Assembly: GCF_964355755.1 (NCBI RefSeq)
Contig: NC_092677.1
Span: forward strand, 24,415,175 to 24,479,174
Length of the DNA stretch: 64,000 bases
Origin: Antedon mediterranea
Taxonomy: Eukaryota > Animalia > Echinodermata
Direction of reading: 5' to 3'
A program made the translations under genes and the position numbers. The notes under the pieces were generated by a model, which was given only the letters and a program-made list of their open reading frames with translations, made no database searches and was not told where the DNA came from. Positions within the stretch are counted from its first letter, which is position 1. Every line of letters starts with the position of its first letter. Shown here piece by piece: positions 5,305-64,000 of this stretch.

Positions 5305-5392
5305 ATGTTCATCTTTAAAGACGCAAGAATACTAGTACTAGGCCTAGTACTAGAACTATTGCCATTCTGTTTCACAAATAATGCCAGATATG
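5305..5392 (+). CDS. Exon 1: signal peptide MFIFKDARILVLGLVLELLPFCFTNNARY
   Basis: ATG, basic then hydrophobic stretch, phase-1 donor G|GTATGT. Equivalent 88-bp exons at 18908-18995, 30740-30827, 44138-44225, 60526-60613. Confidence 0.8.
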
Positions 5393-5859
5393 GTATGTAT
5401 TAAATGCATTTAACATTTAGAATTAAAGATGTATTGTCCCCCTGAAAAAATAATTCTTACAATTTTTTTTGTTAAATATGCCATTTTAATGTCACCTAAT
5501 ACTGTTGTTACGCTATCCACTTTTAGCAAAAATTAGATCGGGAAAAAAATGTATTTACCTAAAAGCAAAAGATAATAGTCAAATTGGCTGCCAATTTTTT
5601 TTTTTTTATTGAATTTAACCATTTATTTTGTCATTTTATAAGTGAAAACATTTTTTTTATATAATTATGTTCTGTGACCGTCTTCTCACAGTAGGTTAAT
5701 GTTCATCTATTTCTGCATTCTTAAAATAACTATTATCTTTTGTTCATGTTTTATGTTGGTTGATGTTATGAGTTTACTGTACGGTATAAAACATATTTCG
5801 GTTTTTGCCGATTGTTCTCAGGTTTTATGAAATTGTCAAAACTTTGAAAAGTGTTTTTC

Positions 5860-6815
5860 TGTTAGTGTTAGTGTCTAAGATACAACAGTATTGACAACAC
5901 GTAACATTTTGTTAGTGTTTGGTTCTTTTAGTGTTCAAATTTCCACCATACAACAGTGTTGAAAACACGTAGCATTTTGTTCTGCTAGTGTCCATATTCC
6001 AGCAAACAACAGTGTTGAATACGCGTATCATTTTGTTAGTGTTTGGATCTTTTAGTGTCCATGTTTCCACCATACAACAGTGTTGAACACACGATCATTT
6101 TGTTAGTATTTGGTTCTGTTGGTGTCCATGTTTCCACCATACAACAGTGTTGAACACACGATCATTTTGTTAGTATTTGGTTCTGTTGGTGTCCATGTTT
6201 CCACCATACAACAGTGTTGACTAACATTTTGTTAGCGTTTGGTTCTATTAGTGTTAAAGTTTCCATCATACAACAGTGTTGAAAACACGTAGCATTTTGT
6301 TAGTGTTTGGTTCTATTAGTGTTAAAGTTTCCACCATACAACAGTGTTGAAAACACGTAGCATTTTGTTAGTGTTTGGTTCTATTAGTGTTAAAGTTTCC
6401 ACCATACAACAGTGTTGAAAACACGTAGCATTTTGTTAGCGTTTGGTTATATTATTGTTCAAATTTCCACCTTACAACAGTGTTGAACACACGTAGCATT
6501 GTGTTATAAGTGCTTGGTTCTGTTAGTGTCCATGTTTCCACCATACAACAGTGTTGACAAACATTTTGTTAGTGTTTGGTTCTTTTAGTGTCCATGTTTC
6601 CACCATACAACAGTGTTGACAAACATTTTGTTAGTGTTTGGTTCTTTTAGTGTTCAAGTTTCCACCATACAACAGTGTTGAAAACGCATAGCATTTTGTT
6701 AGTGTTTGGTTCTGTTTGTGTCCATGTTTCCACCATACAACAGTGTTGAAAACACGTAGCATTTTGCATCGTGTTTTGTTCTGTTAATGTCCATGTTTCC
6801 ACCCTACAACAGTGT
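5860..6815. repeat. ~60-bp minisatellite in intron 1 (copy 1)
   Basis: Unit ~gtgttgaaaacacgtagcattttgttagtgtttggttctgttagtgtccatgtttccaccatacaaca, about 16 copies. Confidence 0.93.
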
Positions 6816-7320
6816 AACATTTTGTAAATCTGTATACTGTGGTCTAGAGCCTCAATAACGTATCACTGTGTGCGTGTATGGCGAAGCTTATACGTTACCG
6901 GACACAGTCGAATACATTTGTTTTAAAGAAAATCTTATTTTAGAACTTATTAAATTATTATTAACAAGGCATATTCATGGCTGCAGTCGCGTGCTCAAGT
7001 TAGTGTTTACCAACCAACCGACCGAAAAACGCGACTCAAAAGCTAAGCATTAAAAATAATGGGATACTAAAACTCATGATACAATACATTCCAATTAATA
7101 GTTTATGATGCTTTCTGTTTTATTTATTTTAAATTTTAAGGTTGTAACCGTATGTTATGTTGAATGTAAAATTAATTTTAAGAGGATAATTAATATTTAA
7201 AGTCTTGCAAATTTACCATCTTTGAATTATTTTAAAAATAATGTTTGATTTATACAACAGACCTACTGTACAAATTAATTTTTTATTAGTGTTTTTTTAT
7301 TGGTGAACATCGACGAATAG

Positions 7321-7477
7321 GTCTGTATGCCTATACTTCACATACAAAATGTTCAGTCTATCCACAGGGTTGTTATAACAGTGGCATACTACTTAGTGAA
7401 GTAACTTGTTCGCCATGGAACATGAATACAGTTACAGAAATCATTGAGTATAATAAACAAAGCACTATATCAAGTTT
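7321..7477 (+). CDS. Exon 2: Cys-containing LRR N-cap (GLYAYTSHTKCSVYPQGCYNSGILLSEVTCSPWNMNTVTEIIEYNKQSTISSL)
   Basis: tag acceptor and tt|gtaagt donor; 157 bp, phase 1 to phase 2, exactly bridging exon 1 and the LRR exons. Intact also at 46167-46323 and 62487-62643. Confidence 0.82.
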
Positions 7478-8544
7478 GTAAGTATTACAGTGTATGTACT
7501 TATTGTGTGGCCATAGAATATATACAGTATATAATATACACAGTGGGATGACGGGTTCCATATGTTCTAATGGCATGATGACGTTATCCAAATCAAACAT
7601 GAAGATGACAATTTCGGAAAATAATGATTCGAGCTAAAAGATATATGATTTTGAAGAAAATTGGACACGTAGAAGTGCGAAGCGCGCTGTTTTAGATTTG
7701 TATAACTGACAAAAGCTTTCAAAATAAGTTATAAACACCAAGGTCACCTCTAATTACTGAAGGGCTAAAAATATACGGTGTAAGTGAAATTACGCGATCA
7801 ATGTTGTTCAAATTTTTAGGCGTGATGACGTCATTAAAATGAGATTGGTGGAACTACACGATTCAGTAACTTTTATGTTGGTTCAATGGGGTTTGCTATG
7901 TTTTTTAGAGTTTGCGGGGTTTGGTAATTATTTTAAACCAAAAGGTGATGTTTTACCCCAAAAATAAGTAGTTAACAACAATTTTGTGTTTGTTTAACTG
8001 ACACAAAGTTTGTAGTACACTACACGATTCAGTAACTTTTATGTTGGTTCGATAGAGTTTTCTATGTTTCTAAGGTTTGCGGGGTTTACGGTGATTACCA
8101 ATACCCAACATTTGTCAAATAAATCAGAAATCGTCTACAGACCTGTCAAGAGTATCAAGAAAAACAATCAGAATTGTACATCGTCCAAGATAGACCATGA
8201 TTTATTATTTAGGTTTTTCCAAAAACCCGGGTGAAAAGGACTGATTCTGCTGAAGGAGAGAACTGCCTAATAAAGACTACTTTAGTTTAAAAAAAAGAAG
8301 AAAAAAAACATTGCATTTTGTAATTCTCACACTCTTGGCCATTAACGTTTATTTCTGTTTGTTTTTATATTTATTTATTTAAATTTTCTTTTGCATTTCA
8401 CAACTTTAATAAATTAATTATTGATGGTGATTTTGATTGAATAATTAAAAAAAATGTTGATTGTCTTTTTAATTGTTTAATGAATTATTTAGCAGCATAA
8501 TATATGGTATAATTAATAAAACAATATCTTTTACAATTTATAAG

Positions 8545-11500
8545 GGGTTTGAATAACAATCAAATTAGTACATTGACAGCCAATGCATTCGCTGGTTTGG
8601 AATCATTGGAATGGCTGTAAGTGACGTTGATTATGTTTACATACCTATGACGTTAATCATAATGTTATTTACTGCACAATATACACACATTTAACAAAAT
8701 TATTTTAAAACTAGTACATAAATATATGCCAGTGCTTATTGTGTCATATTCTAAATTAAATTCCTCATATTAAACTGTATGAAAGCAAACTTGAGCCTGA
8801 AACTGTAAAGGCTTTCCGTTGCAAAATGTAAAATTAAATGGTGAGTTTAGCAATTATTTGCTGATATGTTCACAATGATGTATAAATGTGTTATTGTCAG
8901 AAGTCTTAATAAATGTGATAGTTCATTGCAAAGCATCCACATCAGCCTATATTTATTTATTTGAATAATTAAAAAAAAATGTTGATTGTCTTTTAATTGT
9001 TTAATGAATTATTTAGCAGTATAATATGGTATAATTAATAAAACTATATCTTTTACATTTAACAACTTTTAAGGTGGTTTTTCGACAATCAAATTAGTAC
9101 ATTGACAGCCAATGCATTCGCTGGTTTGGAATCATTGGAAAAACTGTAAGTGACGTTGTTTATGTTTACATACCTATGACGTTAATCTTAATGTTATTTA
9201 CTGCACAATATACACATATTTAAAAACAATATTTTTAAACTAGTACATAAATATAGGCCAATGCTTATTGTGTCATATTCAAAATGAAATTAGTCAATAT
9301 TAAACTGTATGAAAGCATACTTGAGCCTGAAATTGTAAGGGCTTTCCGTTGCAAAGGTAAATTAAATGGCGAGTTTAGCAATTATTTTCTGTTAATCACA
9401 CAATGATGTATAAATGTGTTATTTTCAGAAATCTTAATAAAGGTGATAATTCATTGCAAAAAATCCACATCAGTCTATATTTAATTTATATTTCAATAAT
9501 ATAAAAATTGTTCATTGTTATATTTAATAAGTATTTAGCAGCATAGTATGCCTGTGGTGTAATGAATAAAACAACAATACATACAATATGTGATGTAAGA
9601 TATATGATGTGTGCTTTTTTAATGAAGTCAAATCGTTCAATTAAATAACAGGAAATATTCAGGTGTTATATAGTATGCTATAATTAATAAAACTATCTTT
9701 TACATTTCATAATTTTGAAGGTGGTTGCAAAGCAATCAAATTACTACATTGACAGCCAATGCATTTGCTGGTTTGGAATCATTGAAAGAACTGTAAGTGT
9801 TATTCTTCATCATATCCACATACGTATTTCCATATATCATGTTTTATACACATTACACATATTTAAAACTAGTACATAAATATAGGACAATGCTTATTGT
9901 GTCATATTCTAAATTAAATTCCTCAATAATAAACTGTATGAAAGCAAACTTGAGCCTGAAACTGTAAAGGCTTTCCGTTGCAAAATGTAAAATTAAATGG
10001 CGAGTTTAGCAATTATTTGCTGATATGGTCACAACGATTGTATAAATGTGTTATTGTCAGAAATCTTAATAAATGTGATAATTCATTGCAAAGCATCCAC
10101 ATCAGCCTATTTATTCATTTGAATAATTAAAAAAAAATGTTGATTTTTTTAAAAAAGTTCCTTAAATCATTGGAATGGCTGTAAGTGACGTTGTTTATGT
10201 TTACATATCTATGACGTTAATCATAATGTTATTTACTGCACAATATACAAATATTTACAAAACAATATGTTAAAGTAAACTTGAGCCTGAAACTGTAAAG
10301 GCTTTCCGTTGCAAAATGTAAATTAAATGGTAAGTTTAGCAATTATTTGTTAAGCACAAAATGATGTATAAAAGTGTTATTGTCAGAAATCTTACTAAAT
10401 GTGATAATTCATTGCAAAGCATCCACATCAACCTATATTTATTAATTTGAATTAAAAATAAATGTTGATTGTCTTGTAATTGTTTAATGAATTATTTAGC
10501 AGCACAATATGGTATAATTAATAAAACTTTCATATTTCACAACTTTTAAGGCAATTGCAAAACAATCAAATTATTGCATTGACAGAGAATGCATTCGCTG
10601 GTTTGAAATCATTGGAATGGCTGTAAGTGACGTTGTTTATGTTTACATACCTATGACGTTAATCATAATGTTATTTACTGCACAATATACACACATTTAA
10701 AAACAATATTTTAAACTAGTACATAAATATAGGCCAATGCTTATTGTGTCATTATTCAAAATGAAATTCGTCAATAATAAACTGTATGAAAGCAAACTTG
10801 AGCCTGAAACTGTAAAGGCTTTCCGTTGCAAAATGTAAATTAAATGGCGAGTTTAGCAATTATTTTCTGTTAATCACACAATGATGATGTATAAATGTGT
10901 TATTGTCAGAAATCTTAATAAAGGTGATAATTCATTGCAAAAAATCCACATCAGCCTATATTTAATTTATATTTCAATAATCTAAAAATGGTTCATTGTT
11001 ATATTTAATAAGTATTTAGCAGCATAGTAGGCCTGTGGTGTAATGAATAAAACAACAATACACACAATATGTATACATAGATATATGATGTGTGCTTTTT
11101 TAATGAAGTCAAATCGTTCAATTAAATAACAGGAAATATTCAGGTGTTATATAGTATGCTATAATTAATAAAACTATCTTTTACATTTCATAATTTTGAA
11201 GGTGGTTACAAAGCAATCAAATTACTACATTGACAGCCAATGCATTTGCTGGTTTGGAATCATTGAAAGAACTGTAAGTGTTATTCTTCATCATATCCAC
11301 ATACGTATTTCCATATATATCATGTTTTATACACATTACACATAAAACTAGTACATAAATATAGGACAATGCTTATTGTGTCATATTCTAAATTAAATAC
11401 CTCAATAATAAACTGTATGAAAGCAAACTTGAGCCTGAAACTATAAAGGCTTTCCGTTGCAAAATGTAAAATTAAATGGCGAGTTTAGCAATTATTTGCT

Positions 11501-13067
11501 GATATGCTCACAATGATGTATAAAAGTGTTATTGTCAGAAATCTTAATAAAGGTGATAATTCATTGCAAAAAATCCACATCAGTCTATATTTAATTTATA
11601 TTTAAATAATCTAAAAATGGTTCATTGTTATATTTAATAAGTATTTAGCAGCATAGTAGGCCTGTGGTGTAATGAATAAAACAACAATACACACAATATG
11701 TATACATAGATATATGGTGTTTGCTTTTTTAATGAAGTCAAATCATTCAATCAAATAACAGGAAATATTCAGGTGTTATATAGTATGCTATAATTAATAA
11801 AAACTATCTTTTACATTTCATAATTATGAAGGTGGTTGTTCAGCAATCAAATTAGTACATTGACAGCCAATGCATTCGCTGGTTTGGAATCATTGAAAGG
11901 CCTGTAAGTGACGTTGTTTATGTTTACCTATGACGTTAATTATAATGTTATTTACTGCACAATATATACGTATTTAAAAACAATAGTTTAAAACTAGTAC
12001 ATACATATAGGCCAATGCTTATTGTGTCATATTCAAAATGAAATTCCTCATATTAAACTGTATGAAAGCAAACTTGAGCCTGAAACTGTAAAGGCTTTCC
12101 GTTGCAAAATGTAAATTAAATTGTGAGTTTAGCAATTATTTGCTGATATGCTCACAATGATTGTATAAATGTGTTATTGTCAAAAATATTAATAAAGGTA
12201 ATAATTCATTGCAAAGCATCCACAGCGGCCTCTATTTATTTATGTAAAATTTTTTTTTTAAAGTTGATTGTCTTTTAATTGTTTAATGAATTATTTAGCA
12301 GTATAATATGGTATAATTAATCAAACTTTCATATTTCACAACTTTGAAGGTTGTTGTTCAACAATCAAATTAGAACATTGACAGCCAATGCATTCGTAGG
12401 CTTGAAATCATTGGATAGTCTGTAAGTGACGTTATTTATGTTTACATACCTATGACGTTAATCATAATGTTATTTACTCCACAATATACACATATTTAAA
12501 AAACAATATTTTTAAACTAGTACATAAATATATAGGCCAATGCTTATTGTGTCATATTCAAAATGAAATTCCGTAATATTAAACTGTATGAAAGCAAACT
12601 TGAGCCTGAAACTATAAAGGCTTTCCGTTCCAAAATGTAAATTAAATGGCGAGTTTAGCAATTATTTTCTGTTAATCACACAATGATGTATAAATGTGTT
12701 ATTTTCAGAAATCTTAATAAAGGTGATAATTCATTGCAAAAAATCCACATCAGTCTATATTTAATTTTTATTTAAATAATCTAAAAATGGTTCATTGTTA
12801 TATTTAATAAGTATTTAGCAGCATAGTAGGCCTGTGGTGTAATGAATAAAACAACAATACTCACAATACATAGATATATGGTGTGTGCTTTTTTAATGAA
12901 GTCAAATCATTCAATCAAATAACATGAAATATTCAGGTGTTATATAGTGTGGTATAATTAATAAAAACTATCTTTTACATTTCATAATTTTGAAGGTGGT
13001 TGGAAAACAATCAAATTAGTACATTGACAGAGAATGCATTTGCTGGTTTGGAATCATTGAAAGACCT
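8545..13067 (+). repeat. LRR exon-cassette array, copy 1 (8 exons plus a truncated remnant at ~10164-10180)
   Basis: 72-bp exons aag|..ct|gtaagt: GLNNNQ..EWL, WFFDNQ..EKL, WLQSNQ..KEL, QLQNNQ..EWL, WLQSNQ..KEL, WLFSNQ..KGL, LLFNNQ..DSL, WLENNQ..KDL. Confidence 0.95.
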
Positions 13068-14453
13068 GTAAGTGTTATTCTTCATCATATCCACATACGT
13101 ACCTCCATACTGTATATCATGTTATATACACATTACACACATTGTACATATACATCGTAACCTTATTTGGTTACTTTTGTCAACATGGATTATTTTCATA
13201 ATAATTCATTATTGAGTAAATCAAAATTATAGTATTTATTAGTTTGTTACCAATATTAGGAATATTTAGCCTGTGAATCAAATTTAAGTTAGTAAGCTAT
13301 AAGATTTTAAAAGAAATGTTTAATTTTATTCGTATTTATTCATTCATTTTGACACACCAGCCCTGGTTTTTATTCTTACAAAGTTATTACAATTTAATCT
13401 CACTCTTATTTGTTGTGACGAAATACCTCTCCTCATAGAATTGACCAATATACATTAACTATTTGCTTAATTAAACAGGTATTTACAGGACAACAATATA
13501 ACTACTATTGATCAAGGCGCCTTCTCTGTTTTTGCCTCATCACTTGGAAAACTGTAAGTAATTTATTCTGAAATTCATATGCAGTTTCTCGAAATAATTA
13601 ATCACTTCAATTAGGTACTTTTCTTATGCTATAAACATGTTATCCAAGAAAAAACGGTATCAACAGGATAGGTTTACATACATTTTTTAAACATGGGTAA
13701 ATTTTTACATTCATTATTGTATCTGGCTCATTCCATGGAGTTGAACATGAGAAAGCATTTTAAAAGTTAATCTAACAACAACTAGAACAAACAACTTTTT
13801 ATATAATTAAACATATAAGTAGAAGGATTATCTTAAGTGCCGACGGTGATAAAAATATTATTTTGAGACTACATTGTATCAGTTAGACACTAAATTGATT
13901 GTGGTATACCTTCATTAATACGATATCACTAAAACGACATCGGTGCTACCCAAATGAGACATACTCGTAGATATTTAGTTACATGTGAGCTACACTCATT
14001 GACACTGATTTGATATTTGTTTCCATATTTATTTTTTTTACAGAGACATCAGACGCAACAATTTACAAGTTTACAGAGAAAGTACTTTTGAAGAATTGAA
14101 ATATATAACAGAATTGTAAGTATTATGTCGGATTTAGAAATTCTTTATATTCATTAAATGATATTTTTATTTTGTTTTAACACAGTTACCAATTCCACAT
14201 GCATGCCGACAGTGGCCCAACAAAATTGTTTATGTAGGCCTACAGCTTTTAGGTTATTTTAAATTTCTCCTTCACTTCTATCTTTTAAATTGGTCGTACA
14301 CGTCATACTTTTACTATACGAGTAGATTTGATTGGCTGTAAAGTAGTCGTTATTCCACCTGTTATAGAACTAAAACCATTATAAACATTGTTATAGTAGG
14401 CTACTACTGTATTTAACAACTTCCATTAAATTCTATTGTTTTTTTTAACATAG

Positions 14454-15375
14454 ATATTCAGATTTGTTTCGTCTCTGTTGCCTTGTTGGAGAAATTGAAG
14501 TATGTGAGCCTACTGATGCATTTGCGTCATGCGCTGACTTACTAAAGAGAGAAGTTCTTAGGATATTGATGATAGTTATTGGACTGTCATCTTTGATTGG
14601 TAACTTGATTGTCATCATATCGCGAAGGATAAACAAAGAAAATAGTTCTACAGTTGATTCTATTCTACTCACTAATCTTGCCGCGTCTGACCTCCTGATG
14701 GCAATTTATTTGCTGATCATCGCAGGTGCGGATATACACTACAGAGGAAGGTACGCGAAGGTTGCCAGCGAATGGAAAAACAGCTTTCTCTGCTCTTTTT
14801 CCGGTGCTATTTCAACACTGTCTGGGCAGTGTTCCGTGTCAACCTTGATGCTTATGAGTGTTAACCGTGCTATAAACATCGTCTATCCATTCAGCACCAA
14901 ACGGCTCAAACGTACGAAATGCAAAATTATCATCGGAATTGCTTGGCTGGTATGGCTTTTTATTAGTTTTCTTCCACTGGTAGCTAACAAGTCACATGTT
15001 GGCATACCGTATTTTGGCGAGAACTACTACGGAAAACAGAGTGTGTGTCTCGCGTTGCCACTAACACGACATCGATTACCAGGCTGGGAGTACGCCACTG
15101 CCATATTCATCGCATTCAATGGCTTGGGGTTTTTTGTTATCGCAGCAAGTTATCTGACGATTTTCCTCTCCGTTAAGAGATCTGCAATCACGGCTAACAG
15201 AATGCAGAGACGAGAAGAGGAAATCAAAATGGCCGTGAAACTAGGGTTTATTGTTTTCACCGATTTCTGTTGCTGGTTTCCCATCATAGTAATGGGAATT
15301 TGTTCAGAGATGGAGTGGTGGAGAATTCCTGATGATATATACGTTTGGGCAGCAACATTTATTAATTCCCATTAA
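14454..15375 (+). CDS. Hinge + 7TM terminal exon, copy 1 (truncated in TM7)
   Basis: ORF 14464-15375: LFRLCC..CEPTDAFASCADLL hinge, GN (TM1), NLAASD (TM2), FTDFCCWFP (TM6); lacks NPxxY. Confidence 0.9.
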
Positions 15376-15622
15376 CTCATCAGTAAACCCATATCTTTAC
15401 ACAATTATCTATATGTGTAAAAGCGAGCGCAGGCCATAAAGAGCTGACATTCCCCGTGCTTTCTCAGTTTATTTATTTACTACATTTATTTATTCAATTT
15501 TGATTCACAAGGGTAGCTCTAACAGGTGTACTAGTACAGCTATCTTGAAGAGGCCCTTTTAAAAACATTATACAATTATACAAAAAGACATTCAAACATC
15601 AAATTACAAATAGATCCATAAA

Positions 15623-18224: not shown

Positions 18225-18257
<33 letters not shown>

Positions 18258-18262
18258 AACAC

Positions 18263-18296
<34 letters not shown>

Positions 18297-19171
18297 TGGT
18301 AGGACGTGACATAGCGCATTATGCTGAAAGCCTCAATGCGCTTTACATAGACAGAAACGATTAGAAAATTACAAATTAAAAAGGTGGGTTTATAAATAAA
18401 TAAATAGCTTTATTAAAACTTTTTTAGTTTTTTGGGGGACAATACATCTTTAACTATTTGTTTGTTTTAAATTAGGGCCTACAGTTTTTTCAGGTAAATT
18501 TTTTTTTTCGATCCAATTTTTTGAATAACTACTGTATTATGTGACATTAAAATGGCATATTAAAAAACATTTAAAAAAAACATTTTCAGGGGGACAATAT
18601 CTTATCAAAACCGTTAGTTACACCAGTTAAATATACTCTATATGATGACGTGTTTATGTTTAAAGCTCCACAGGTATATATATGAGACATATTGAATTAT
18701 CAAAAGAAAAGCAAAGTTCAATAATTAAATCATATTGCCCACAACCTGGTCTGGTAATGTAATTTAATACACTTTAAGTGAATGTCATCTCAAAAATTAA
18801 TGAAGACAATCATGAAATAATTAGGCCTAGGTCTATGCATTATATTAGTGAGCTTTTGACAAACTAACGGTTTATTTCTATTACCGATTTAATACGTATG
18901 TAAGAAGATGTTCATCTTTAAAGACGCAAGAATACTAGTACTAGGCCTAGTACTAGAACTATTGCCATTCTGTCTCACAAATAATGCCAGACCTGGTATG
19001 TATTAAATGCATTTAAAATTTAGAACTAAGTGACTGCTAAACATGAACTATCATCACTATCTAAGTAGGCCTGTGTCTGAATAATCATGGGCAATGTCAG
19101 ATATTTTAGATACTATTATCTGTTCTGGGACCGTCTTCTCACATCTATTTCTGCATTCTTATAATAACTAT

Positions 19172-19847
19172 TTCGCTTTTTAGTGATGCTGTCATTGTCC
19201 ACAGTTCACAATTATACAGAAAGATGCTTGTAATGTATACGTTGAAGACTCTCATTTCCAGGTTTATTGTTATTTTTCTATTTTGGAGTATGTGATTTAT
19301 CTTGCTGAAAGCTGCTAATGCGAGACATTTTCTGTTATTAACATCCTCTCTGGTTCCCAATTTACTTCCAAGGAATTTGCAGTTTCGCCAGTCTCCATTT
19401 CCTTTCCTTTTTATTTTAAAATCTTCTGTTTTTGACGGGTTAACTTTTAGATTATAGTCTATCACTATATCACTAAAAAGCGAAATAGATGTCTTTCAAA
19501 GAAAATTCCTAAAGAGAATAATAGGTATAAGGTGGCCGGAGAAAATAAAAAATGAAGATTTGTACAAAAGAACAGGAGAAATTGAGTGGAGTAAGAACGT
19601 AAAGAAAAGAAGACTGACATGGTATGGTCACCTGCTCCGTTTAAATGAAAACACACCAGCTAAGATCGCACTCGGAGAGGCTCAGAGAAAGACCAAAAGG
19701 AAGACCAAAAACAACATGGATGGCAAACATAAAAAAGGAAACAGAACTGTTCACACGCGGACCTATACACATGCTTGCTCAAAAACGTACTGAGTGTCGA
19801 ACACAAGTGAGACACGCAATGTCTAACGACGATTAGCGTTTTGGGAG
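19172..19847. mobile_element. 5'-truncated, 5'-inverted RTE-like non-LTR retrotransposon in intron 1 of copy 2
   Basis: Minus part encodes KVNPSKTE..KFLGS..SIFLYNCELWTMT; plus part continues ..KKRRLTWYGHLLRL..RPKGRPKTTW (RT C-terminal region). TSD ATAATAACTAT at 19161-19171 and 19848-19858. Absent from the other copies. Confidence 0.88.
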
Positions 19848-43482: not shown

Positions 43483-43524
<42 letters not shown>

Positions 43525-47100: not shown

Positions 47101-50100
47101 GTAAGATATATGATGTGTGCTTTTTTAATGAAATCAAATCGTTCAATCAAATAACAGAAAATATTCAGGTGTTATTATAGTATGGTATAATTAATAAAAC
47201 TATCTTTTACATTTCATAATTTTGAAGGTGGTTGCAAAGCAATCAAATTACTACATTGACAGCCAATGCATTTGCTGGTTTGGAATCATTGAAAGAACTG
47301 TAAGTGTTATTCTTCATCATATCCACATACGTATTTCCATATCATGTTTTATACACATTACACATATTTAAAACTAGTACATAAATATAGGACAATGCTT
47401 ATTGTGTCATATTCTAAATTAAATTCCTCAATAATAAACTGTCTGAAAGAAAACTTGAGCCTGAAACTGTAAAGGCTTTACGTTGCAAAATGTAAAATTA
47501 AATGGTGAGTTTAACAATTATTTGCTGATATGCTCACAATGATGTATAAAAAGTGTTATTGTCAGAAATCTTAATAAATGTGATAATTCATTGCAAAGCA
47601 TCCACATCAGTCTATATTTATTCATTTTAATAATTAAAAAAATGTTGATTGTCTTTTAATTGTTTAATGAATTATTTAGCAGTATAATATGTAGTATGGT
47701 ATCATGAATACAACTTTTTTTTATATTTCACAACTTTGAAGGTACTTGGAGTACAATCAAATTAGTACATTGACAGAGAATGCATTCGCTGGTTTGGAAT
47801 CATTGAAAGGACTGTAAGTGACGTTGTTTATGTTTACATACCTATGAAGTTAATATTAATGTTATTTACTGCACAATATACATATTTAAAAACAATATTT
47901 TAAAACTAGTACATAAATATAGGCCAATGCTTATTGTGTCATATTCTAAATTGAATTGCTCAACATTAAACTGTATGAAAGCAAACTTGAGCCTGAAACT
48001 GTAAAGGCTTTCCGTTGCAAAATGTAAATTAAATGGCGAGTTTAGCAATTATTTGCTGTTAATCACACAATGATGTATAAATGTGTTATTGTCAGAAATC
48101 CTAATAAATGTGATTAATTCATTTCAAAAAATCCACATCAATCTATATTTATTTATTTGAAAAAAATGTTGATTGTCTTTGAATTGTTTAATGAATTATT
48201 TAGTAGTATTAGTATGCATGGTATATAATTAATGAAACTATATATCTTTTACATTTAACAACTTTTAAGGTGGTTGTACAACAATCAAATTAGAACATTG
48301 ACAGAGAATGCATTCGCTGGTTTGAAATCATTGGAAAGTCTGTAAGTGACGTTTATTATGTTTAAATATCTATGACGTTAATCCTAAAGTTATTTACTGC
48401 ACAATATACACACATTTAAAAACATTATTTTAAAACTAGTACATAAATATAGGCCAATGCTTATTGTGTCATATTCTAAATTAAATTCCTCAATAATAAA
48501 CTGTATGAAAGCAAACTTGAGCATGAAACTGAAAAGACTTTCCGTTGCAAAATGTAAAATTAAATGGTAAGTTTAGCAATTATTTACTGATATGCTCACA
48601 ATGATTGTATAAATGTGTTATTGTCAGAAATATTAATAAAGGTGATAATTGATTGCAAAGCATTAACATCATCCTATATTTATTTATTTGAATAATTTAA
48701 AAAAATGTTGATTGTCTTTTAATTGTTTAATGAATTATTTAGCAGTATAATATGGTTTAATTAATCAAACTTTCATATTTCACAACTTTGAAGGGGGTTG
48801 CAGTACAATCAAATTAGTACATTGACAGAGAATACATTCGCTGGTTTGGAATCATTGGAAGAACTGTAAGTGTTATTGATTATGTTTACATACCTATGAA
48901 GTTAATCATAATGTTATTTACTGCACAATATACACACATTTAAAAACATTATTTTAAAACTAGTACATAAATATAGGCCAATGCTTATTGTGTCATATTC
49001 TAAATTAAATTCCTCAATAATAAACTGTATGAAAGCAAACTTGAGCATGAAACTGAAAAGACTTTCCGTTGCAAAATGTAAAATTAAATGGTAAGTTTAG
49101 CAATTATTTACTGATATGCTCACAATGATTGTATAAATGTGTTATTGTCAGAAATATTAATAAAGGTGATAATTGATTGCAAAGCATTAACATCATCCTA
49201 TATTTATTTATTTGAATAATTTAAAAAAATGTTGATTGTCTTTTAATTGTTTAATGAATTATTTAGCAGTATAATATGGTTTAATTAATCAAACTTTCAT
49301 ATTTCACAACTTTGAAGGATGTTGCATTACAATCAAATTAGTACATTGACAGAGAATACATTCGCTGGTTTGGAATCATTGGAAGAACTGTAAGTGTTAT
49401 TGATTATGTTTACATACCTATGAAGTTAATCATAATGTTATTTACTGCACAATATACACACATTTAAAAACATTATTTTAAAACTAGTACATAAATATAG
49501 GCCAATGCTTATTGTGTCATATTCAAAATGAAATTCCTCAATAATAAACTGTATGAAAGCAAACTTGAGCATGAAACTGAAAAGGCTTTCCGTTGCAAAA
49601 TGTAAATTAAATGGCGATTTTAGCAATTATTTTCTGTTAATCACACAATGATGTATAAATGTGTTATTGTCAGAAATATTAATAAAGGTGATAATTGATT
49701 GCAAAGCATCCACATCAGCCTATATTTATTTATTTGAATAATTAAAAAAAATGTTGATTGTCTTTTAATTGTTTAATGAATTATTTAGCAGTATAATATG
49801 GTATAATTAATAAAACTTTCATATTTCACAACTTTGAAGGAGGTTGGAGTACAATCAAATTACAACATTGACAGCCAATGTATTCGCTGGTTTGGAATCA
49901 TTGGAAAGGCTGTAAGTGACGTTGATTATGTTTACATACCTATGACATTAATCATAATGTTATTTACTGCACAATAAACACATATTTAAAAACAATATTT
50001 TAAAACTAGTACATAAATATAGACCAATGCTTATTGTGTCATATTCAAAATGAAATTCCGTAATATTAAACTGTATGAAAGCAAACTTGAGCATGAAAGT

Positions 50101-53100
50101 GAAAAGGCTTTCCGTTACAAAATGTAAATTAAATTGTGAGTTTAGCAATTATTTGCTGATATGCTCACAATGATTGTATAAATGTGTTATTGTCAGAAAT
50201 ATTAATAAAGGTGATAATTGATTGCAAAGCATCCACATCAGCCTATATTTATTTATTTGAATAATTAAAAAAAATGTTGATTGTCTTTTAATTGTTTAAT
50301 GAATTATTTAGCAGTATAATATGGTATAATTAATAAAACTTTCATATTTCACAACTTTTAAGGTGGTTGCAGTACAATCAAATTAAAACATTGACAGAGA
50401 ATGCATTCGCTGGTTTGAAATCATTGGAATGGCTGTAAGTGACGTTGTTTATGTTTACATACCTATGAAATTAATCCTAATGTTATTTAGTGCACAATAT
50501 ACACATATTTAAAAACAATATTTTTAAACTAGTACATAAATATATAGGCCAATGCTTATTGTGTCATATTCAAAATGAAATTCCTCATATTAAACTGTAT
50601 GAAAGCAAACTTGAGCTTGAAACTGTAAAGGCTTTCCGTTGCAAAATGTAAATTAAATTGTGAGTTTAGCAATTATTTGCTGATATGCTCACAATGATGT
50701 ATAAATGTGTTATTGTCAGAAATCTTAATAAAGGTGATAATTCATTGCAAAAAATCCACATCAGTCTATATTTAATTTATATTTCAATAATCTAAAAATG
50801 GTTCATTGTTATATTTAATAAGTATTTAGCAGCATAGTAGGCCTGTGGTGTAATGAATAAAACAACAATACACACAATATGTATACATAGATATATGGTG
50901 TGTGCTTTTTTAATGAAGTCATATCGTTCAATCAAATATTCAGGTGTTATATAGTATGGTATAATTAATAAAACTATCTTTTACATTTCATAATTTTGAA
51001 GGTGGTTGAAAAGGAATCAAATTAGTACATTGACAGAGTATGCATTTGCTGGATTGGAATCATTGAAACAACTGTAAGTGTTATTCTACATCATATCCAC
51101 ATACGTACCTCCATACTGTATATCATGTTATATACACATTACACACATTGTACATACACCGTAACCTTATTTGGTTACTTTTGTCGACATGAATTATTTT
51201 CATAATAATTCATTATTGAGTAAATCAAAATTATAGTATTTATTAGTTTGTTACCAATATTAGGAATATTTAGCATTGTTATAGCCTGTGAATCAAATTT
51301 AAGTAAGTAAGCTATAAGATTTAATAAGAAATTTTAACTTTATTCGTATTTATTCATTCATTTTGACACACCAGCCCTGGTATTTATTCTTACAAAGGTT
51401 TTACAATTTAATCTCACTCTTATTTGCTGTGACGAAATACCTCTCCTCATATACACACAATGTTTAAAAACAATATTTTAAAACTAGTACATAAAAGGCC
51501 AATTAAATTGTGTCATATTCAAAATAAAATTCCTCAACTGTAAAGCAAATTTGAGCCTGAAACTGTAAAGGCTTTAGGAAAATAAGTAAATAGCCTTTAC
51601 ATACCCTATTTTAAATTCTAAAAAGTCTGAAAAAATCTTCAAGTGCAGTCGTGATCGATTAGTGTATTTGACCAATGTAAACATATGAAGTGAATTTGTG
51701 CCTGAAACTGACAAGACTTTCCGTTACAAAATGTAAATTATATAGAGTGTTTACCAATTATTTGATAATATTCACACAATGTATTATTGTTATTGTCAGA
51801 AATATTCTTAATTCATGGCCTATATTTAATTAATCCAATAATCTAAAAATCAGTCATTGTATTCAATTGGATATTTGGCTAAAACTATCTTTTACATTTG
51901 AAAACTTTAAAGGTTGTTAAGCAATAATCAAATTAGTACATTGACAGAGAATGCATTCGCTGGTTTGAAATCATTGGAAAAGCTGTAAGTGACGTTGTTT
52001 ATGTTTACATACCTATGACGTTAATCGTAATGTTATTTACTGCACAATAAACACATATTTAAAAACAATATTTTAAAACTTATACATAAATATATGCCAA
52101 TGCTTATTGTGTCATATTCAAAATTAAATTCCTTAATATTAAACTGTATGAAAGCAAACTTGAGCGTGAAACTGTAAAGGCTTTCCGTTACAAAATGTAA
52201 ATTAAATGGTGAGTTTAGCAATTATTTGCTGATATGCTCACAATGATGTATAAAAGTGTTATTGTCAGAAATCACAATAAAGGTGATAATTCATTGCAAA
52301 AAATCCACATCAGCCTATTTATTTATTTGAATAATTAAAAAAAATGTTGATTGTCTTTTAATTGTTTAATGAATTATTTAGCAGTATAATAATATGGTTT
52401 AATTATTAATAAAACTATATCTTTTACATTTAACAACTTTTAAGGTGGTTGTACAACAATCAAATTAGTACATTGACAGCCAATGCCTTCGCTGGTTTGG
52501 AATCGTTGAAAGAACTGTAAGTGACGTTGTTTATGTTTACATACCTATGAAGTTAATCATAATGTTATTTACTGCACAATATATACATATTTAAAAACAA
52601 TATTTTAAAACTAGTACATTATAGGCCAATGTTTATTGTGTCATTATTCAAAATGAAATTCCTCAATATTAAACTGTATGAAAAAAACTTGAGCCTGAAA
52701 CTGAAAAGGCTTTCCGTTGCAAAATGTAAATTAAATGGTGAGTTTAGCAATTATTTGCTGATAATCACACAATGATGTATAAATGTGTTATTGTCAGAAA
52801 TATTAATAAAGGTGATAATGCATTGCAAAGTATCCACATCAGCCTATATTTATTCATTTTAATAATTTAAAAAATTTTGATTGTCTTTTAATTGTTTAAT
52901 GTTATTTAGCAGCTTAATATGGTATAATAATAAAACTATATCATTTATATTTCACAACTTTTAAGATATTTGCAAAACAATCAAATTAGTACATTGACAG
53001 CCAATACATTCGCTGGTTTGAAATCATTGGATAGTCTGTAAGTGACGTTGTTTATGTTTACATACCTATGAAGTTAATCCTAATGTTATTTACTCCACAA

Positions 53101-56100
53101 TATACACATATTTAAAAACAATATTTTAAAACTAATACATAAATATAGGCCAATGGTTATTGTGTCATATTCAAAATGAAATTTCTCAATATTAAATTGT
53201 ATGAAAGCAAACTTGAGCCTGAAACTGAAAAGGCTTTTCGTTGCAAAATGTAAATTTATATGGTGAGTTTAGCAATTATTTACTGATATGCTCACAATGA
53301 TGTATAAAAGTGTTATTGTCCGAAATCTTAATAAAGGTGATAATTCATTGCAAAAAATCCACATCAGTCTATATTTAATTTATATTTCAATAATCTAAAA
53401 ATGGTTCATTGTTATATTTAATAAGTATTTAGCAGCATAGTAGGCCTGTGGTGTAATGAATAAAACAACAATACACACAATATGTATACATAGATATATG
53501 GTGTGTGCTTTTTTAATGAAGTCAAATCATTCAATCAAATAACATGAAATATTCAGGTGTTATATAGTATGGTATAATTAATAAAAACTATCTTTTACAT
53601 TTCATAATTTTGAAGGTGGTTGGAAAACAATCAAATTAGTACATTGACAGAGAATGCATTTGCTGGTTTGGAATCATTGAAAGACCTGTAAGTGTTATTC
53701 TACATCATATCCACATACGTACCTCCATACTGTATATCATGTTATATACACATTACACACATTGTACATACATCGTAACCTTATTTTGTTACTTTTGTCA
53801 ACATGGATTATTTTCATAATAATTCATTTTTGAGTAAATCAAAATTATAGTATTTATTAGTTTGTTACCAATATTAGGAATATTTAGCCTGTGAATCAAA
53901 TTTAAGTCAGTAAGCTATAAGATTTAAAAAGAAATTTTTAATTTTATTCGTATTTATTTATTCATTTTGACACACCAGCCCTGGTTTTTATTCTTACAAA
54001 GTTATTACAATTTAATCTCACTCTTATTTGTTGTGACGAAATACCTCTCCTCATAGAATTGACCAATATACATTAACTATTAGCTTAATTAAACAGGTAT
54101 TTACAGGACAACAATATAACTACTATTGATCAAGGCGCCTTCTCTGTTTTTGCCTTATCACTTGGAAAACTGTAAGTAATTTATTCTGAAATTCATGCAG
54201 TTTCTCGAAATAATTAATCACTTCAATTAGGTACTTTTCTTATGCTATAAACATGTTATCCAAGAAAAAACGGTATCAACAGGATAGGTTTACATACATT
54301 TTTTAAACATGGGTAAATGTTTACATTCATTATTGTATCTGGCTCATTCCATGGAGTTGAAAATGAGAAAGCATTTTAAAAGTTAATATAACAAGTAGAA
54401 CAAACAACTTAAGTGGATTTACACTAATAATTACTTTGTATCTGTAACGTTAAAATATATACCAATGATAGATACATATAAAGTAGAAGGATTATCTTCG
54501 TGAGGTGGTTTCCCGAATGATCGTAAAATCAAAAACGGTACTGTGTATGACCAACTAGCGTTATTGTCACCGGCTAGTCATCCATTCATAGAAGTACTGA
54601 TGTAGTAGCCTACCTGTACGGAGACCATAGAATGTGACCCGAGGCATGACTAACTACGACTTTAGATGATAGGAAGTTGAGAAAAAATGTTACGAGTAGT
54701 TGTACGACATGAAGATGTTTATGAAATTATGTCAATAATGTTTACACACTAGGCATACAAATAGTAATGTTTGTTAGTAAAAATAATTTTGAGTTAATAA
54801 GAATAAGATATAAGAAAGAAAAGCAAAGAGACTATGGAGCGGCTATTCCTGAATATACAATACTAAAGTATCGTAGATTTAAATAATAAATTTTAGGCGA
54901 TCTTGTCAAAGGTCAAGCGCCATATAGCCTGCCACGTTTCGATATTCAATATTGAACTTGACCTTACTTTGTATCTGTAACGTTAAGGATAGATACATAT
55001 AAAGTAGAAGGATTATCTTAAGTGCCGACGGTGATAAAAATATTATTTTGAGACTACATTGCATCAGTTAGACACTATATTGATTGTGGTATACCTTCAT
55101 TAATACGATATCACTAAAACGACATCGGTGCTATCCAAATGAGACATACTCGTAGATATTTAGTTACATGTGAGCTACACTCATTGACACTGATTTGATA
55201 TTTGTTTCCATATTTATTTTTTTTACAGAGACATCAGACGCAACAATTTACAAGTTTACAGAGAAAGTACTTTTGAACAATTGAAATATATAACAGAATT
55301 GTAAGTATTATGTCGGATTTAGAAATTCTTTATATTCATTAAATTATATTTTTATTTTGTTTTAACACAGTTACCAATTCCACATGCATGCCGACAGTGG
55401 CCCAACAAAATTGTTTATGTAGGCCTACAGCTTTTAGGTTATTTTAAATTTCTCCTTCACTTCTATCTTTTAAATTGGTCGTACACGTCATACTTTTACT
55501 ATACGAGTAGATTTGATTGGCTGTAAAGCAGTTGTTATTCCACCTGTTATAGAACTAAAACCATTATAAACATTGTTATAGTAGGCTACTACTGTATTTA
55601 ACAACTTCCATTAAATTCAATTGTTTTTTTAACATAGATATTCAGATTTGTTTCGTCTCTGTTGTGTTGTTGGAGAAATTGAAGTATGTGAGCCTACTGA
55701 TGCTTTTGCGTCCTGCGCTGACTTACTAAAGAGAGAAGTTCTTAGGATATTGATGATAGTTATTGGACTGTCATCTTTTATCGGTAACTTGATTGTCATC
55801 ATATCGCGAAGGATAAACAAAGAAAATAGGTCTACAGTTGATTCTATTCTACTCACTAATCTTGCCGCGGCTGACTTGCTGATGGCAATTTATTTGCTGA
55901 TCATCGCAGGTGCAGATATACACTACAGAGGAAGGTACGCGAAGGTTGCCAGCGAATGGAAAAACAGCTTTCTCTGCTCTTTTTCCGGTGCTATTTCAAC
56001 ACTGTCTGGGCAGTGTTCCGTGTCAACCTTGATGGTTATGAGTATTAACCGTGCTATAAACATCGTCTATCCATTCAGCACCAAACGGCTCAAACGTACG

Positions 56101-56622
56101 AAATGCAAAATTATCATCGGTATTGGTTGGCTGGTATGGCTTTTTATTAGTTTCCTTCCACTGGTAGCTAACAAGTCACATGTCGGCATACCATATTTTG
56201 GCGAGAACTACTACGGAAAACAAAGTGTGTGTCTCGCGTTGCCACTAACACGACATCGATTACCAGGCTGGGAGTACGCCACGGCCATATTCATCGCATT
56301 CAATGGCTTGGGTTTGTTTGTTATCACAGCAAGTTATTTGACGATTTTCCTCTCCGTTAAGAGATCTGCAATCACGGCTAACAGAATGCAGAGACGAGAA
56401 GAGGAAATCAAAATGGCCGTGAAACTAGGGTTTATTGTTTTCACCGATTTCTGTTGCTGGTTTCCCATCATAGTAATGGGAATTTGTTCAGAGATGGAGT
56501 GGTGGAAAATTCCTGATGATATATACGTTTGGGCAGCAACATTTATAATTCCCATTAACTCATCAGTAAACCCATATCTTTACACAATTATCTATATGTG
56601 TAAAAGCGAGCGCAGGCCATAA
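44138..56622 (+). CDS. LRR-GPCR copy 4, intact, 17 exons, 746 aa (12 variable + 2 fixed LRR exons, 7TM), GRL101/RXFP-like
   Basis: Exons 44138-44225, 46167-46323; 72-bp exons starting 47228, 47742, 48270, 48794, 49318, 49840, 50363, 51002, 51913, 52445, 52966, 53616; then 54097-54171, 55229-55300, 55638-56622. Total 2241 nt = 747 codons; no internal stop seen. Confidence 0.9.
44693..45662. repeat. ~60-bp minisatellite (copy 4)
   Basis: Same unit, about 16 copies. Confidence 0.92.
47228..53687 (+). repeat. LRR exon-cassette array, copy 4 (12 exons)
   Basis: WLQSN..KEL, YLEYN..KGL, WLYNN..ESL, GLQYN..EEL, MLHYN..EEL, RLEYN..ERL, WLQYN..EWL, WLKRN..KQL, LLSNN..EKL, WLYNN..KEL, YLQNN..DSL, WLENN..KDL. 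Confidence 0.95.
54432..55019 (-). repeat. Intronic satellite-related block, copy 4
   Basis: Near-identical to 24631-25218. Confidence 0.8.
55638..56622 (+). CDS. Hinge + 7TM terminal exon, copy 4
   Basis: Intact 324-aa ORF 55648-56622. Confidence 0.95.
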
Positions 56623-60525: not shown

Positions 60526-63500
60526 ATGTTCATCTTTAAAGACGCAAGAATACTAGTACTAGGCCTAGTACTAGAACTATTGCCATTCTGTTTCACAAAT
60601 AATGCCAGACCTGGTATGTATTAAATGCATTTAACATTTAGAATTAAAGATGTATTGTCCCCCTGAAAAAATAATTCTTACAATTTTTTTTGTTAAATAT
60701 GCCATTTTAATGTCACCTAATACTGTTGTTACGCTATCCACTTTTAGCAAAAATTAGATTGGGAAAAAAATGTATTTACCTAAAAGCAAAAGATAATAGT
60801 CAAATTGGCTGCCATTTTTTTTTTTTTTTATTGAATTTAACCATTTATTTTGTCATTTTATAAGTGAAAACATTTTTTTTATATAATTATGTTCTGTGAC
60901 CGTCTTCTCACAGTAGGTTAATGTTCATCTATTTCTGCATTCTTAAAATAACTATTATCTTTGTTCATGTTTTATGTTGGTTGATGTTATGAGTTTACTG
61001 TACGGTATAAAACATATTTCGGTTTTTGCCGATTGTTCTCAGGTTTTATGAAATTGTCAAAACTTTGAAAAGTGTTTTTCTGTTAGTGTTAGTGTCCAAG
61101 ATACAACAGTATTGACAACACGTAACATTTTGTTAGTGTTTGGTTCTTTTAGTGTTCAAATTTCCACCATACAACAGTGTTGAAAACACGTAGCATTTTG
61201 TTCTGCTAGTGTCCATATTCCAGCAAACAACAGTGTTGAATACGCGTATCATTTTGTTAGTGTTTGGATCTTTTAGTGTCCATGTTTCCACCATACAACA
61301 GTGTTGAACACACGATCATTTTGTTAGTATTTGGTTCTGTTGGTGTCCATGTTTCCACCATACAACAGTGTTGAACACACGATCATTTTGTTAGTATTTG
61401 GTTCTGTTGGTGTCCATGTTTCCACCATACAACAGTGTTGACTAACATTTTGTTAGCGTTTGGTTCTATTAGTGTTAAAGTTTCCATCATACAACAGTGT
61501 TGAAAACACGTAGCATTTTGTTAGTGTTTGGTTCTATTAGTGTTAAAGTTTCCACCATACAACAGTGTTGAAAACACGTAGCATTTTGTTAGCGTTTGGT
61601 TATATTATTGTTCAAATTTCCACCTTACAACAGTGTTGAACACACGTAGCATTGTGTTATAAGTGCTTGGTTCTGTTAGTGTCCATGTTTCCACCATACA
61701 ACAGTGTTGACAAACATTTTGTTAGTGTTTGGTTCTGTTAGTGTTCAAGTTTCCACCATACAACAGTGTTGAAAACGCATAGCATTTTGTTAGTGTTTGG
61801 TTCTGTTTGTGTCCATGTTCCAATTCATACATAGCAGTGTTGAAAACAACATGTAGCATTTTGTTAGCGTTTGGTTCTGTTAGTGTCCATGTTTCCACCA
61901 TACAACAGTGTTGAAAACACGTAGCATTTTGCATCGTGTTTTGTTCTGTTAATGTCCATGTTTCCACCCTACAACAGTGTAACATTTTGTAAATCTGTAT
62001 ACTGTGGTCTAGAGCCTCAATAACGTATCACTGTGTGCGTGTATGGCGAAGCTTATACGTTACCGGACACAAGTCGAATACATTTGTTTTAAAGAAAATC
62101 TTATTTTAGAACTTATTAAATTATTATTAACAAGGCATATTCATGGCTGCAGTCGCGTGCTCAAGTTAGTGTTTACCAACCAACCGACCGAAAAACGCGA
62201 CTCAAAAGCTAAGCATTAAAACTAATGGGATACTAAAACTCATGATACAATACATTCTAATTAATAGTTTATGATACTTTCTGTTTTCTTTATTTTAAAT
62301 TTTAAGGTTGTAACCGTATGTTATGTTGAATGTAAAATTAATTTTAAGAGGATAATTAATATTTAAAGTCTTGCAAATTTACCATCTTTGAATTATTTTA
62401 AAAATAATGTTTGATTTATACAACAGACCTACTGTACAAATTAATTTTTTATTAGTGTTTTTTTATTGGTGAACATCGACGAATAGGTCTGTATGCCTAT
62501 ACTTCACATACAAAATGTTCAGTCTATCCACAGGGTTGTTATAACAGTGGCATACTACTTAGTGAAGTAACTTGTTTGCCATGGAACATGAATACAGTTA
62601 CAGAACTCATTGAGTATAATAAACAAAGCACTATATCAAAATTGTAAGTATTACAGTGTATGTACTTATTGTGTAGCCATAGAATATATACAGTATATAA
62701 TATACATAGTGAGATTACGGGTTCCATATGTTCTAATGGCATGATGACGTTATCCAAATCAAACATGAAGATGACAATTTCGGAAAATAATGATTCGAGC
62801 TAAAAGATATATGATTTTGAAGAAAATTGGACACGTAGAAGCGCGAAGCGCGCTGTTTTAGATTTGTATAACTGACAAAAGCTTTCAAAATAAGTTATAA
62901 ACACCAAGGTCACCTCTAATTACTGAAGGGCTAAAAATATACGGTGTAAGTGAAATTACGCGATCAATGTTGTTCAAATTTTTAGGCGTGATGACGTCAT
63001 TAAAATGAGATTGGTGGAACTACACGATTCAGTAACTTTTATGTTGGTTCAATGGGGTTTGCTATGTTTTTTTAGAGTTTGCGGGGTTTGGTAATTATTT
63101 TAAACCAAAAGGTGATGTTTTACCCCAAAAATAAGTAGTTAACAACAATTTTGTGTTTGTTTAATTGACACAAAGTTTGTAGTACACTACACGATTCAGT
63201 AACTTTTATGTTGGTTTGATGGAGTTTTCTATGTTTCTAAGGTTTGCGGGGTTTACGGTGATTACCAATACCCAATGTATACATTTGTCAAATAAATCAG
63301 AAATGGTCTACAGACCTGTCAAGAGTATCAAGAAAAACAATCAGAATTGTACATCGTCCAAGATAGACCATTATTTATTATTTAGGTTTTTCCAAAAACC
63401 CGGGTGAAAAGGACTGATTCTGCTGAAGGAGAGAACTGCCTAATAAAGACTACATTAGTTTTAAAAAAAGAAGAAAAAAAAAACATTGCATTTTGTAATT

Positions 63501-63791
63501 CTCACACTCTTGGCCCTTAACGTTTATTTCTGTTTGTTTTTATATTTATTTATTTAAATTTTCTTTTGCATTTCACAACTTTAATAAATTAATTATTGAT
63601 GGTGATTTTGATTGAATAATTAAAAAAAATGTTGATTGTCTTTTTAATTGTTTAATGAATTATTTAGCAGCATAATATATGGTATAATTAATAAAACAAT
63701 ATCTTTTACAACTTATAAGGGGTTTGAATAACAATGAAATTAGTACATTGACAGCCAATGCATTCTCTGGTTTGGAATCATTGGAATGGCT
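60526..63791 (+). CDS. LRR-GPCR copy 5, 5' part (continues beyond window)
   Basis: Exons 60526-60613, 62487-62643, 63720-63791 (GLNNNEISTLTANAFSGLESLEWL), in frame; introns resemble copy 1. Confidence 0.85.
61080..61981. repeat. ~60-bp minisatellite (copy 5)
   Basis: Same unit, about 15 copies. Confidence 0.92.
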
Positions 63792-64000
63792 GTAAGTGAC
63801 GTTGATTATGTTTACATACCTATGACGTTAATCATAATGTTGTTTACTGCACAATATACACACATTTAACAAAATTATTTTAAAACTAGTACATAAATAT
63901 ATGCCAGTGCTTATTGTGTCATATTCTAAATTAAATTCCTCATATTAAACTGTATGAAAGCAAACTTGAGCCTGAAACTGTAAAGGCTTTCCGTTGCAAA

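Follow-up and report, generated by a model that had tools for sequence, protein, structure and literature searches.

Background

G-protein-coupled receptors that carry leucine-rich repeats (LRRs), known as LGRs, are treated as fixed hormone receptors, and for the variable LRR receptors known so far the output runs via TIR domains, kinases, GTPases or associated chains. The repeated strands of LRR proteins form a concave, ligand-binding face, and in the variable lymphocyte receptors (VLRs) of lampreys and hagfish a fixed scaffold carries a variable concave face. Here we analysed 64,000 nucleotides of the genome of the feather star Antedon mediterranea (contig NC_092677.1, positions 24,415,175 to 24,479,174; hereafter "the window"), which hold a tandem array of five LGR genes where near-identical exons for a seven-transmembrane (7TM) domain are combined with differing numbers of variable, one-exon LRRs ("cassettes"). 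Crinoids constitute the earliest-branching echinoderm class and their immune receptors have hardly been studied. Papers are cited by PMC number and our statements about them refer to the excerpts available.

The window genes share with the GRL101-type (type C2) LGRs the 7TM and hinge of the relaxin-receptor/GRL101 group. A lineage-specific tandem expansion, as seen here, is described for GRL101 in apple snails (PMC6573481), and two GRL101-like transcripts are listed among differentially expressed snail genes (PMC13619432). For crinoids one GRL101 gene was reported, with no further LGRs after a search, and an insulin/relaxin-like ligand of GRL101 is put forward as a hypothesis (both PMC8286064). 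Compared to type C2 the window genes are without LDLa modules, and they have a short cytoplasmic tail and a variable number of homogenised one-exon LRRs. RXFP1/2 (type C1) have a single LDLa and a fixed LRR number, whereas the window genes have no LDLa and 5-12 variable plus two fixed LRR exons. Among other lineage-specific expansions, the Trichoplax-specific LGRs comprise 46 members, one with 34 LRRs (PMC9545775), while the LRR-bearing receptors expanded in octopus belong to another GPCR class, the adhesion GPCRs (PMC6408891); neither excerpt describes cassette homogenisation together with concave-face variation.

With respect to mechanism, the exon shuffling of the ROCO LRR-GTPases in the brown alga Ectocarpus (PMC3341825) is by analogy the closest known, and with the apple-snail GRL101 expansion it provides the nearest parallels to the array. 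As in the window genes, a 24-residue LRR is encoded by each 72-nt exon and recombination is intra- as well as intergenic; the near-identity of paralogs outside the LRR domain and birth and death are likewise comparable, as would be diversifying selection, which is likely but not proven in the window genes. The output differs, a GTPase in ROCO and an animal 7TM without ROC-COR GTPase domain in the window genes, and ROCO loci contain silent and inverted intronic exons whereas the cassettes of the window are all (35/35) in coding orientation with intact splice sites. The sequence-only reading had drawn a parallel to the VLRs, and the protein design bears this out: both use 24-residue LRR modules on a fixed scaffold, and VLRA was among the sequence matches of the Antedon relative P0086 (a fold search with its model gave LGR4 and glycoprotein-hormone receptors). 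The parallel does not extend to assembly. VLR genes are germline-incomplete and are somatically assembled with cytidine deaminases (PMC13428168), whereas the window genes are complete, intron-separated and have a GPCR output; we saw no sign of VLR-like somatic assembly, and no flanking reservoir of donor cassettes, a VLR hallmark, was present in the window outside the genes or on the minus strand.

We propose that the window holds a tandem cluster of a crinoid-specific, LDLa-less offshoot of GRL101-type receptors, in which an ectodomain with one exon per LRR has been reshuffled by recombination, likely unequal crossover and gene conversion in the germline. The concave face, predicted to bind the ligand, likely gains new residues through selection, and in consequence different foreign macromolecules would be recognised by the individual intact copies, all of which would signal via a nearly constant 7TM; all exons would be spliced into one mRNA and signalling would involve G proteins. 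As a whole, this explanation of recombined and selected LRR ectodomains on a constant 7TM, recognising foreign macromolecules, has in our judgement a somewhat better than even chance of being correct.

Results and discussion

Organisation of the array

The window has a GC content of 30% and carries five tandem units of approximately 11-16 kb each, with start codons at 5305, 18908, 30740, 44138 and 60526, the fifth being truncated at the window end. Scanning the window for 72-bp exons with an LRR motif identified 35; each is exactly 72 bp long, is bounded by AG and GTAAGT, and encodes one 24-residue LRR in phase 2-2. They are distributed as 8, 5, 9, 12 and at least one over genes 1 to 5; within the window all 35 are on the plus strand and none on the minus strand, and 31 are unique in DNA and 30 in protein. 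The pattern goes far beyond what chance would give: in all 35 motif matches the 72-nt frame is open and flanked by acceptor and donor site. A blastn control gave 36 places, the 36th being a partial remnant of a deleted cassette (10165-10220, plus strand) that retains the last 16 nt of the exon and the donor site but has no acceptor; beyond this remnant no inverted or orphan cassettes were detected in the window.

Each unit follows the same plan: an 88-bp signal exon and a cap exon of 121 or 127 bp are followed by the variable exons, a pair of fixed LRR exons (75 and 72 bp) and a single exon that encodes the hinge together with the 7TM. Constant exons are 96-99% identical between copies, with 83-86 of 86 nt identical for the signal exon, 73-75 of 75 nt and 70-71 of 72 nt for the first and second fixed LRR exons, and 955-975 of 981 nt for the 7TM exon. 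Exon scan and exon alignment hence confirm the earlier claim of tandem genes with 8, 5, 9, 12 and at least one single-LRR exons next to near-identical constant exons. The cap exon (exon 2) is also variable (98-117 of 121-127 nt identical). In gene 2 it (20855-20981) is two codons longer than, and approximately 20% different from, the other cap exons, and therefore the N-terminal cap varies too.

Receptor identity and the crinoid family

The 7TM exon matched Pfam 7tm_1, the rhodopsin (class A) family, above cut-off (E 1.4e-30) and encodes NPxxY and CWxP-type motifs; in the gene models and in RefSeq relatives, all of which are predicted, signal peptide, LRR ectodomain and Cys-rich hinge are on one chain with it. 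Searched against proteins, the 7TM exon gave 44 matches of greater length and 34 of similar length. The best match was A. mediterranea XP_071959546.1 (P0045; GRL101-like, 96% identity), followed by other Antedon proteins (64-81% in the similar-length set) and by Anneissia japonica (60-63%), named GRL101-like; the nearest solved structure is RXFP1 (E 3e-47). A quick tree was computed with 99 rows, i.e. 95 of 97 relatives (two were dropped due to short alignments) and four window 7TMs; it was midpoint rooted and had no vertebrate outgroup and no RXFP or glycoprotein-receptor rows. It contains a crinoid clade of 46 rows with LDLa-bearing rows at the base, and nested in it a clade of 43 rows without LDLa. 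The latter comprises 32 Antedon-type rows (28 RefSeq, spread over eight scaffolds, and the four from the window), an Anneissia group of 10 rows and one unplaced Anneissia row; the crinoid clade, the nested clade, its Antedon part and its Anneissia group all have an SH-aLRT (Shimodaira-Hasegawa-like approximate likelihood ratio test) support of 99. The assignment of the 7TM to the GRL101/RXFP type in the sequence-only reading is in keeping with this nesting among LDLa-bearing crinoid GRL101-like rows and with RXFP1 as nearest solved relative.

No LDLa, hidden exons included, was detected in the window by a six-frame motif scan or by tblastn with the LDLa region of P0002; its absence is firm for the window and for models with a signal-like start (P0001, P0053, P0094), many RefSeq models being truncated. 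The tail after NPxxY is 11-42 amino acids (aa) in 16 nested-clade proteins checked vs 151-171 aa in three LDLa-bearing crinoid rows. Judged from these comparisons, the nested clade has lost the LDLa modules and the long cytoplasmic tail and has expanded separately in Antedon and Anneissia, and the window array is one cluster of a genome-wide crinoid family and not a stand-alone locus. In P0086, of another Antedon subfamily, 11 repeats were detected with a mean identity of 79% and the same five variable positions as in the window (see below); the family is present in two feather-star genera, and LRR scaffolds are homogenised within subfamilies and differ from one subfamily to the next, while the variable positions are the same. 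Two annotated Anneissia RefSeq isoforms, modelled with a signal-like start followed by LRRs and 7TM, differ by exactly one 24-aa LRR; as annotated models they lend indirect support to a joining of LRR exons to the 7TM.

Residues 1-25 of the P0045 RefSeq model are a translated cassette intron, 100% identical to 34539-34613 in the window, and this model is therefore truncated and mis-started. The short open frame in question recurs in most cassette introns, often broken, and was rejected as an exon. We also note a second clade of 18 LDLa-less LGRs (P0018, P0023, P0027-P0033, P0035-P0041, P0043 and P0044) with up to approximately 20 LRRs, which are less homogenised (40-47% repeat identity in two checked); possibly this represents another lineage-specific expansion.

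A description of an LDLa-less crinoid GRL101 family was not found in the literature searched, which did not extend to subscription papers and to which the PMC8286064 supplements may add. Neither the receptor class nor the shuffling mechanism is new by itself; what appears to be undescribed is that an LDLa-less offshoot of GRL101, expanded across crinoid genomes, unites the two, and the published view of a minimal crinoid LGR set needs qualifying. Automatic annotation handles these genes badly, as in the RefSeq model that starts in a cassette intron, and this may explain why the family was overlooked so far.

Variable positions map to the predicted concave face

The variation among the cassettes is concentrated to codons 1, 3, 4, 22 and 23, with entropies of 1.7-3.1 bits (mean 2.37) vs a mean of 0.29 for the other 19 positions; codons 8, 12, 14 and 19 are secondary variable sites. 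In the AlphaFold model of P0086 (mean predicted local distance difference test score, pLDDT, 85.4) 12 repeated strands cover the equivalents of codon 23, the Leu split by the exon border, and codon 1. The model thus supports a focus of the variation on the predicted concave LRR face, and the surface residues by which the cassettes had been said to differ correspond to five high-entropy codons that map to the predicted concave strand. Moreover, the exon border cuts the strand mid-way and therefore each new pair of neighbouring cassettes makes a new strand; in the window 24 different 5' motifs and 16 different 3' motifs are combined across exon borders.

Exchange of cassettes within and between genes

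The four-gamete test fails for 24 of 35 framework site pairs inside the exon, the nearest relative of 26 of the 35 cassettes lies in another gene, and the upstream and downstream flanks of cassettes correlate weakly (rho 0.18). Exchange has therefore occurred inside exons and between genes. Gene 3 carries a recent duplication of two cassettes (33733-34907 vs 34908-36082, five differences in 1174 nt) and in gene 4 the flanks of cassettes 4 and 5 are identical. Cassette 8 of gene 4 is a stranded terminal-type cassette; at the start of the intron after it (51074-51912) lies a truncated copy of the intron normally found ahead of the first fixed exon. Read from the sequence, all three features are traces of recent unequal crossovers. 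Whole genes are mosaics: the intron between the fixed exons pairs genes 1 and 3 (about 490 bp) and genes 2 and 4 (about 1058 bp), while the 7TM pairs genes 3 and 4 (six differences in 980 nt). In addition, codon 11 is Thr in all 35 window cassettes and Ala in both cassettes of the 96%-identical P0045, a split that fits homogenisation (concerted evolution) since the two lineages parted. Duplication, mosaics and four-gamete failures agree with the germline diversification through unequal crossover and conversion suggested in the sequence-only reading.

In a highly repetitive region, such patterns could also arise in the assembly from collapsed or duplicated repeats or from mixed haplotypes, and it may be that the 1-bp indels and the duplicated cassette pair of gene 3 are errors. 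However, the constant parts of the copies differ by 1-3% and have private insertions and deletions, 31 of the 35 cassettes are unique, and an independent A. mediterranea assembly shows the same cassette intron and the same architecture, which makes an artefact extremely improbable. We also consider it very unlikely that diversification is somatic, with cassettes rearranged or combinatorially skipped in each cell to give a VLR- or Dscam-like repertoire. Frame symmetry and intact splice sites are found in all 35 exons, also in those of the two broken genes (see below), which could serve as donors, and skipping of one LRR is annotated in the Anneissia relative. On the other hand, genes 2 and 4 are complete as assembled, the window has no cassettes outside genes or on the other strand, unlike lamprey VLR (PMC13428168) and the introns of Ectocarpus ROCO (PMC3341825), and every feature seen can be explained by germline processes.

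Intact and broken copies

The four complete copies include two intact genes, 2 and 4, with open models of 568 and 734 aa and canonical splice sites. Gene 3 is without exon 2, a deletion junction at about 32788 joining intron 1 to a cassette intron; its modelled frame stops at codon 40 as a result, and its second fixed LRR exon has a length of 71 bp. In gene 1 an additional base at about 15362 cuts the seventh transmembrane segment short, and the gene is a probable pseudogene, the alternative being that the 1-bp insertion is an assembly error. The five tandem receptor genes of the sequence-only reading are hence present as an array, of which frameshifts and the lost exon 2 leave only half of the complete copies intact. 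With one half of the complete copies broken, the array is one of birth and death.

Selection and neutral turnover

Comparing all pairs among the 31 unique exons (Nei-Gojobori), the proportions of replacement and silent differences (pN/pS) at the five codons are 0.46/0.53 (approximately 0.9), a ratio that rests on few silent sites near saturation, does not exceed 1 and taken alone gives no sign of positive selection. We also considered cassette pairs picked by low flank divergence, giving nine tree edges with 8 differences in 2079 flank positions (0.4%). These youngest pairs show 7 replacements in 118 sites at the five codons; silent exon sites show 1 change in 125 (Fisher p=0.03) and framework sites 2 replacements in 378. 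With 13 edges (flanks 0.8% apart) the corresponding numbers are 16.5/171 replacements vs 4.5/181 silent changes (p=0.005). Positive selection on the five concave-face codons is likely on these counts, but not proven.

Several points weigh against the explanation that we favour. The youngest pairs were selected by flank similarity and their edges are partly dependent (a single E/Q change enters twice), and conversion from other cassettes over short tracts can look like an excess of replacements; the 7TM of genes 3 and 4 differ by four replacements and no silent change. Further, no spliced read across a variable exon was seen in the aligned run contigs: those on gene 4 (from 4 of the 10 listed runs, none recorded as RNA) gave no exon-exon joint in the 15 joints inspected of 99. 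In X10, a run that also has intronic pieces, a contig of 324 nt begins precisely at the 7TM acceptor (55638) and leaves 53 letters unaligned; it would be compatible with a spliced transcript but was not counted. Published expression of GRL101-type receptors points to sensory organs and not to immune cells (PMC6573481, PMC6267866, PMC13403566). The remaining three points, the all-pair ratio of approximately 0.9, the two broken copies among four, and the variation of exposed positions in any LRR array, ordinary LRR proteins and the less homogeneous arrays of P0009, P0012, P0032 and P0039 among them, also speak for neutral turnover, where frame-symmetric cassettes of tandem duplicates expand and contract by recombination while, with constraint on the LRR scaffold only, exposed positions drift in decaying, redundant hormone-type receptors. 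We regard neutral turnover as unlikely. The five codons change approximately 12-16 times faster than the flanking introns in the young pairs, and faster than silent exon sites, for which drift alone is insufficient; 7TM pN/pS is 0.19-0.46 in five of six gene pairs, and the cassette design is maintained in separate subfamilies of two genera.

Possible function

The constant 7TM together with a variable LRR face suggests macromolecular ligands, and the array is likely an inherited, fast-changing set of sensors for foreign molecules. Conflict with foreign organisms is ranked first among the possible causes since turnover, pseudogenes and replacement excess fit it; for a non-self ligand from microbes, parasites or symbionts we put the chance at somewhat below even, and a conspecific or food protein cue as ligand is fairly improbable. 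Alternatively, the same diversification might serve chemosensory or reproductive recognition, by sensors in the epidermis that respond to protein cues of conspecifics, gametes or food and not to microbes or parasites. In apple snails 29-132 tandem GRL101 genes were reported, many expressed in tentacles and labial palps (PMC6573481), and GRL101-like transcripts are enriched in the sensory tentacles of starfish (PMC6267866) and in the tentacles of triton (PMC13403566). These reports, in the excerpts, give no ligand and describe no ectodomain shuffling, the constant 7TM speaks against small odorants, and rapid turnover and pseudogenes suit an arms race at least equally well; a sensory role of this kind therefore strikes us as rather unlikely.

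If crinoids have an LGR family whose LRR cassettes are shuffled and under selection, variable recognition would gain a route through a GPCR, and with a constant 7TM a single signalling assay could be used for all ectodomain variants. A wider and more doubtful idea, offered tentatively, is that in crinoids a hormone-type GPCR has become a polymorphic, genome-wide repertoire for non-self, in which dozens of LDLa-less GRL101 paralogs would combine germline-recombined, VLR-like surfaces, exon skipping and direct signalling through G proteins; this would amount to a variable receptor for immunity or allorecognition in a deuterostome.

Coordinates of the genes and other sequence features

All genes are on the plus strand. 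Gene 1 (5305-15439) has its signal exon at 5305-5392, the cap exon at 7357-7477, eight variable LRR exons within 8545-13067 (starts 8545, 9074, 9721, 10551, 11202, 11832, 12350 and 12996), the fixed LRR exons at 13479-13553 and 14044-14115, and the 7TM exon from 14454. The intact gene 2 (18908-26820) starts with the signal exon (18908-18995), and the cap exon given above is followed by five variable exons within 21550-23883 (starts 21550, 22032, 22684, 23163 and 23812), the fixed exons (24294-24368 and 25427-25498) and the 7TM exon (25836-26820). The pseudogene, gene 3 (30740-40234), in which the cap exon is deleted, has nine variable exons within 33158-37867 (starts 33158, 33802, 34326, 34977, 35501, 36152, 36671, 37151 and 37796), fixed exons at 38279-38353 and 38842-38912 (the latter of 71 bp, causing a frameshift) and a 7TM exon that is still open (39250-40234). 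For the intact gene 4 (44138-56622) the signal exon is at 44138-44225, the cap exon at 46203-46323, and the 12 variable exons lie within 47228-53687 (starts 47228, 47742, 48270, 48794, 49318, 49840, 50363, 51002, 51913, 52445, 52966 and 53616); its fixed exons are at 54097-54171 and 55229-55300 and the 7TM exon at 55638-56622. Gene 5 (60526-64000), cut by the window end, has a signal exon (60526-60613), a cap exon (62523-62643) and a first variable exon (63720-63791), the nearest relative of which is the first cassette of gene 1.

Positions 1-2416 lie directly upstream of the first gene unit and constitute a tandem repeat with a unit of approximately 1.1 kb and a more GC-rich element of 160 bp (doubled at 1175-1495); a 93-aa open frame within it (271-549) had no Pfam match. 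Intron 1 of all five genes contains a 68-bp minisatellite of approximately 14-16 copies, short in gene 2 (5880-6815, 20022-20303, 31267-32306, 44684-45661 and 61071-61980 in genes 1 to 5). Only in gene 2 does intron 1 also carry two oppositely oriented open frames (19148-19790), with no Pfam match above cut-off, which we take to resemble an inverted, truncated reverse-transcriptase fragment of a long interspersed nuclear element (LINE). Finally, genes 2 and 4 carry an insertion of approximately 570 bp in the intron that separates their fixed LRR exons (about 54248-55101 in gene 4), and its very high contig depth in the aligned runs suggests a high-copy element.

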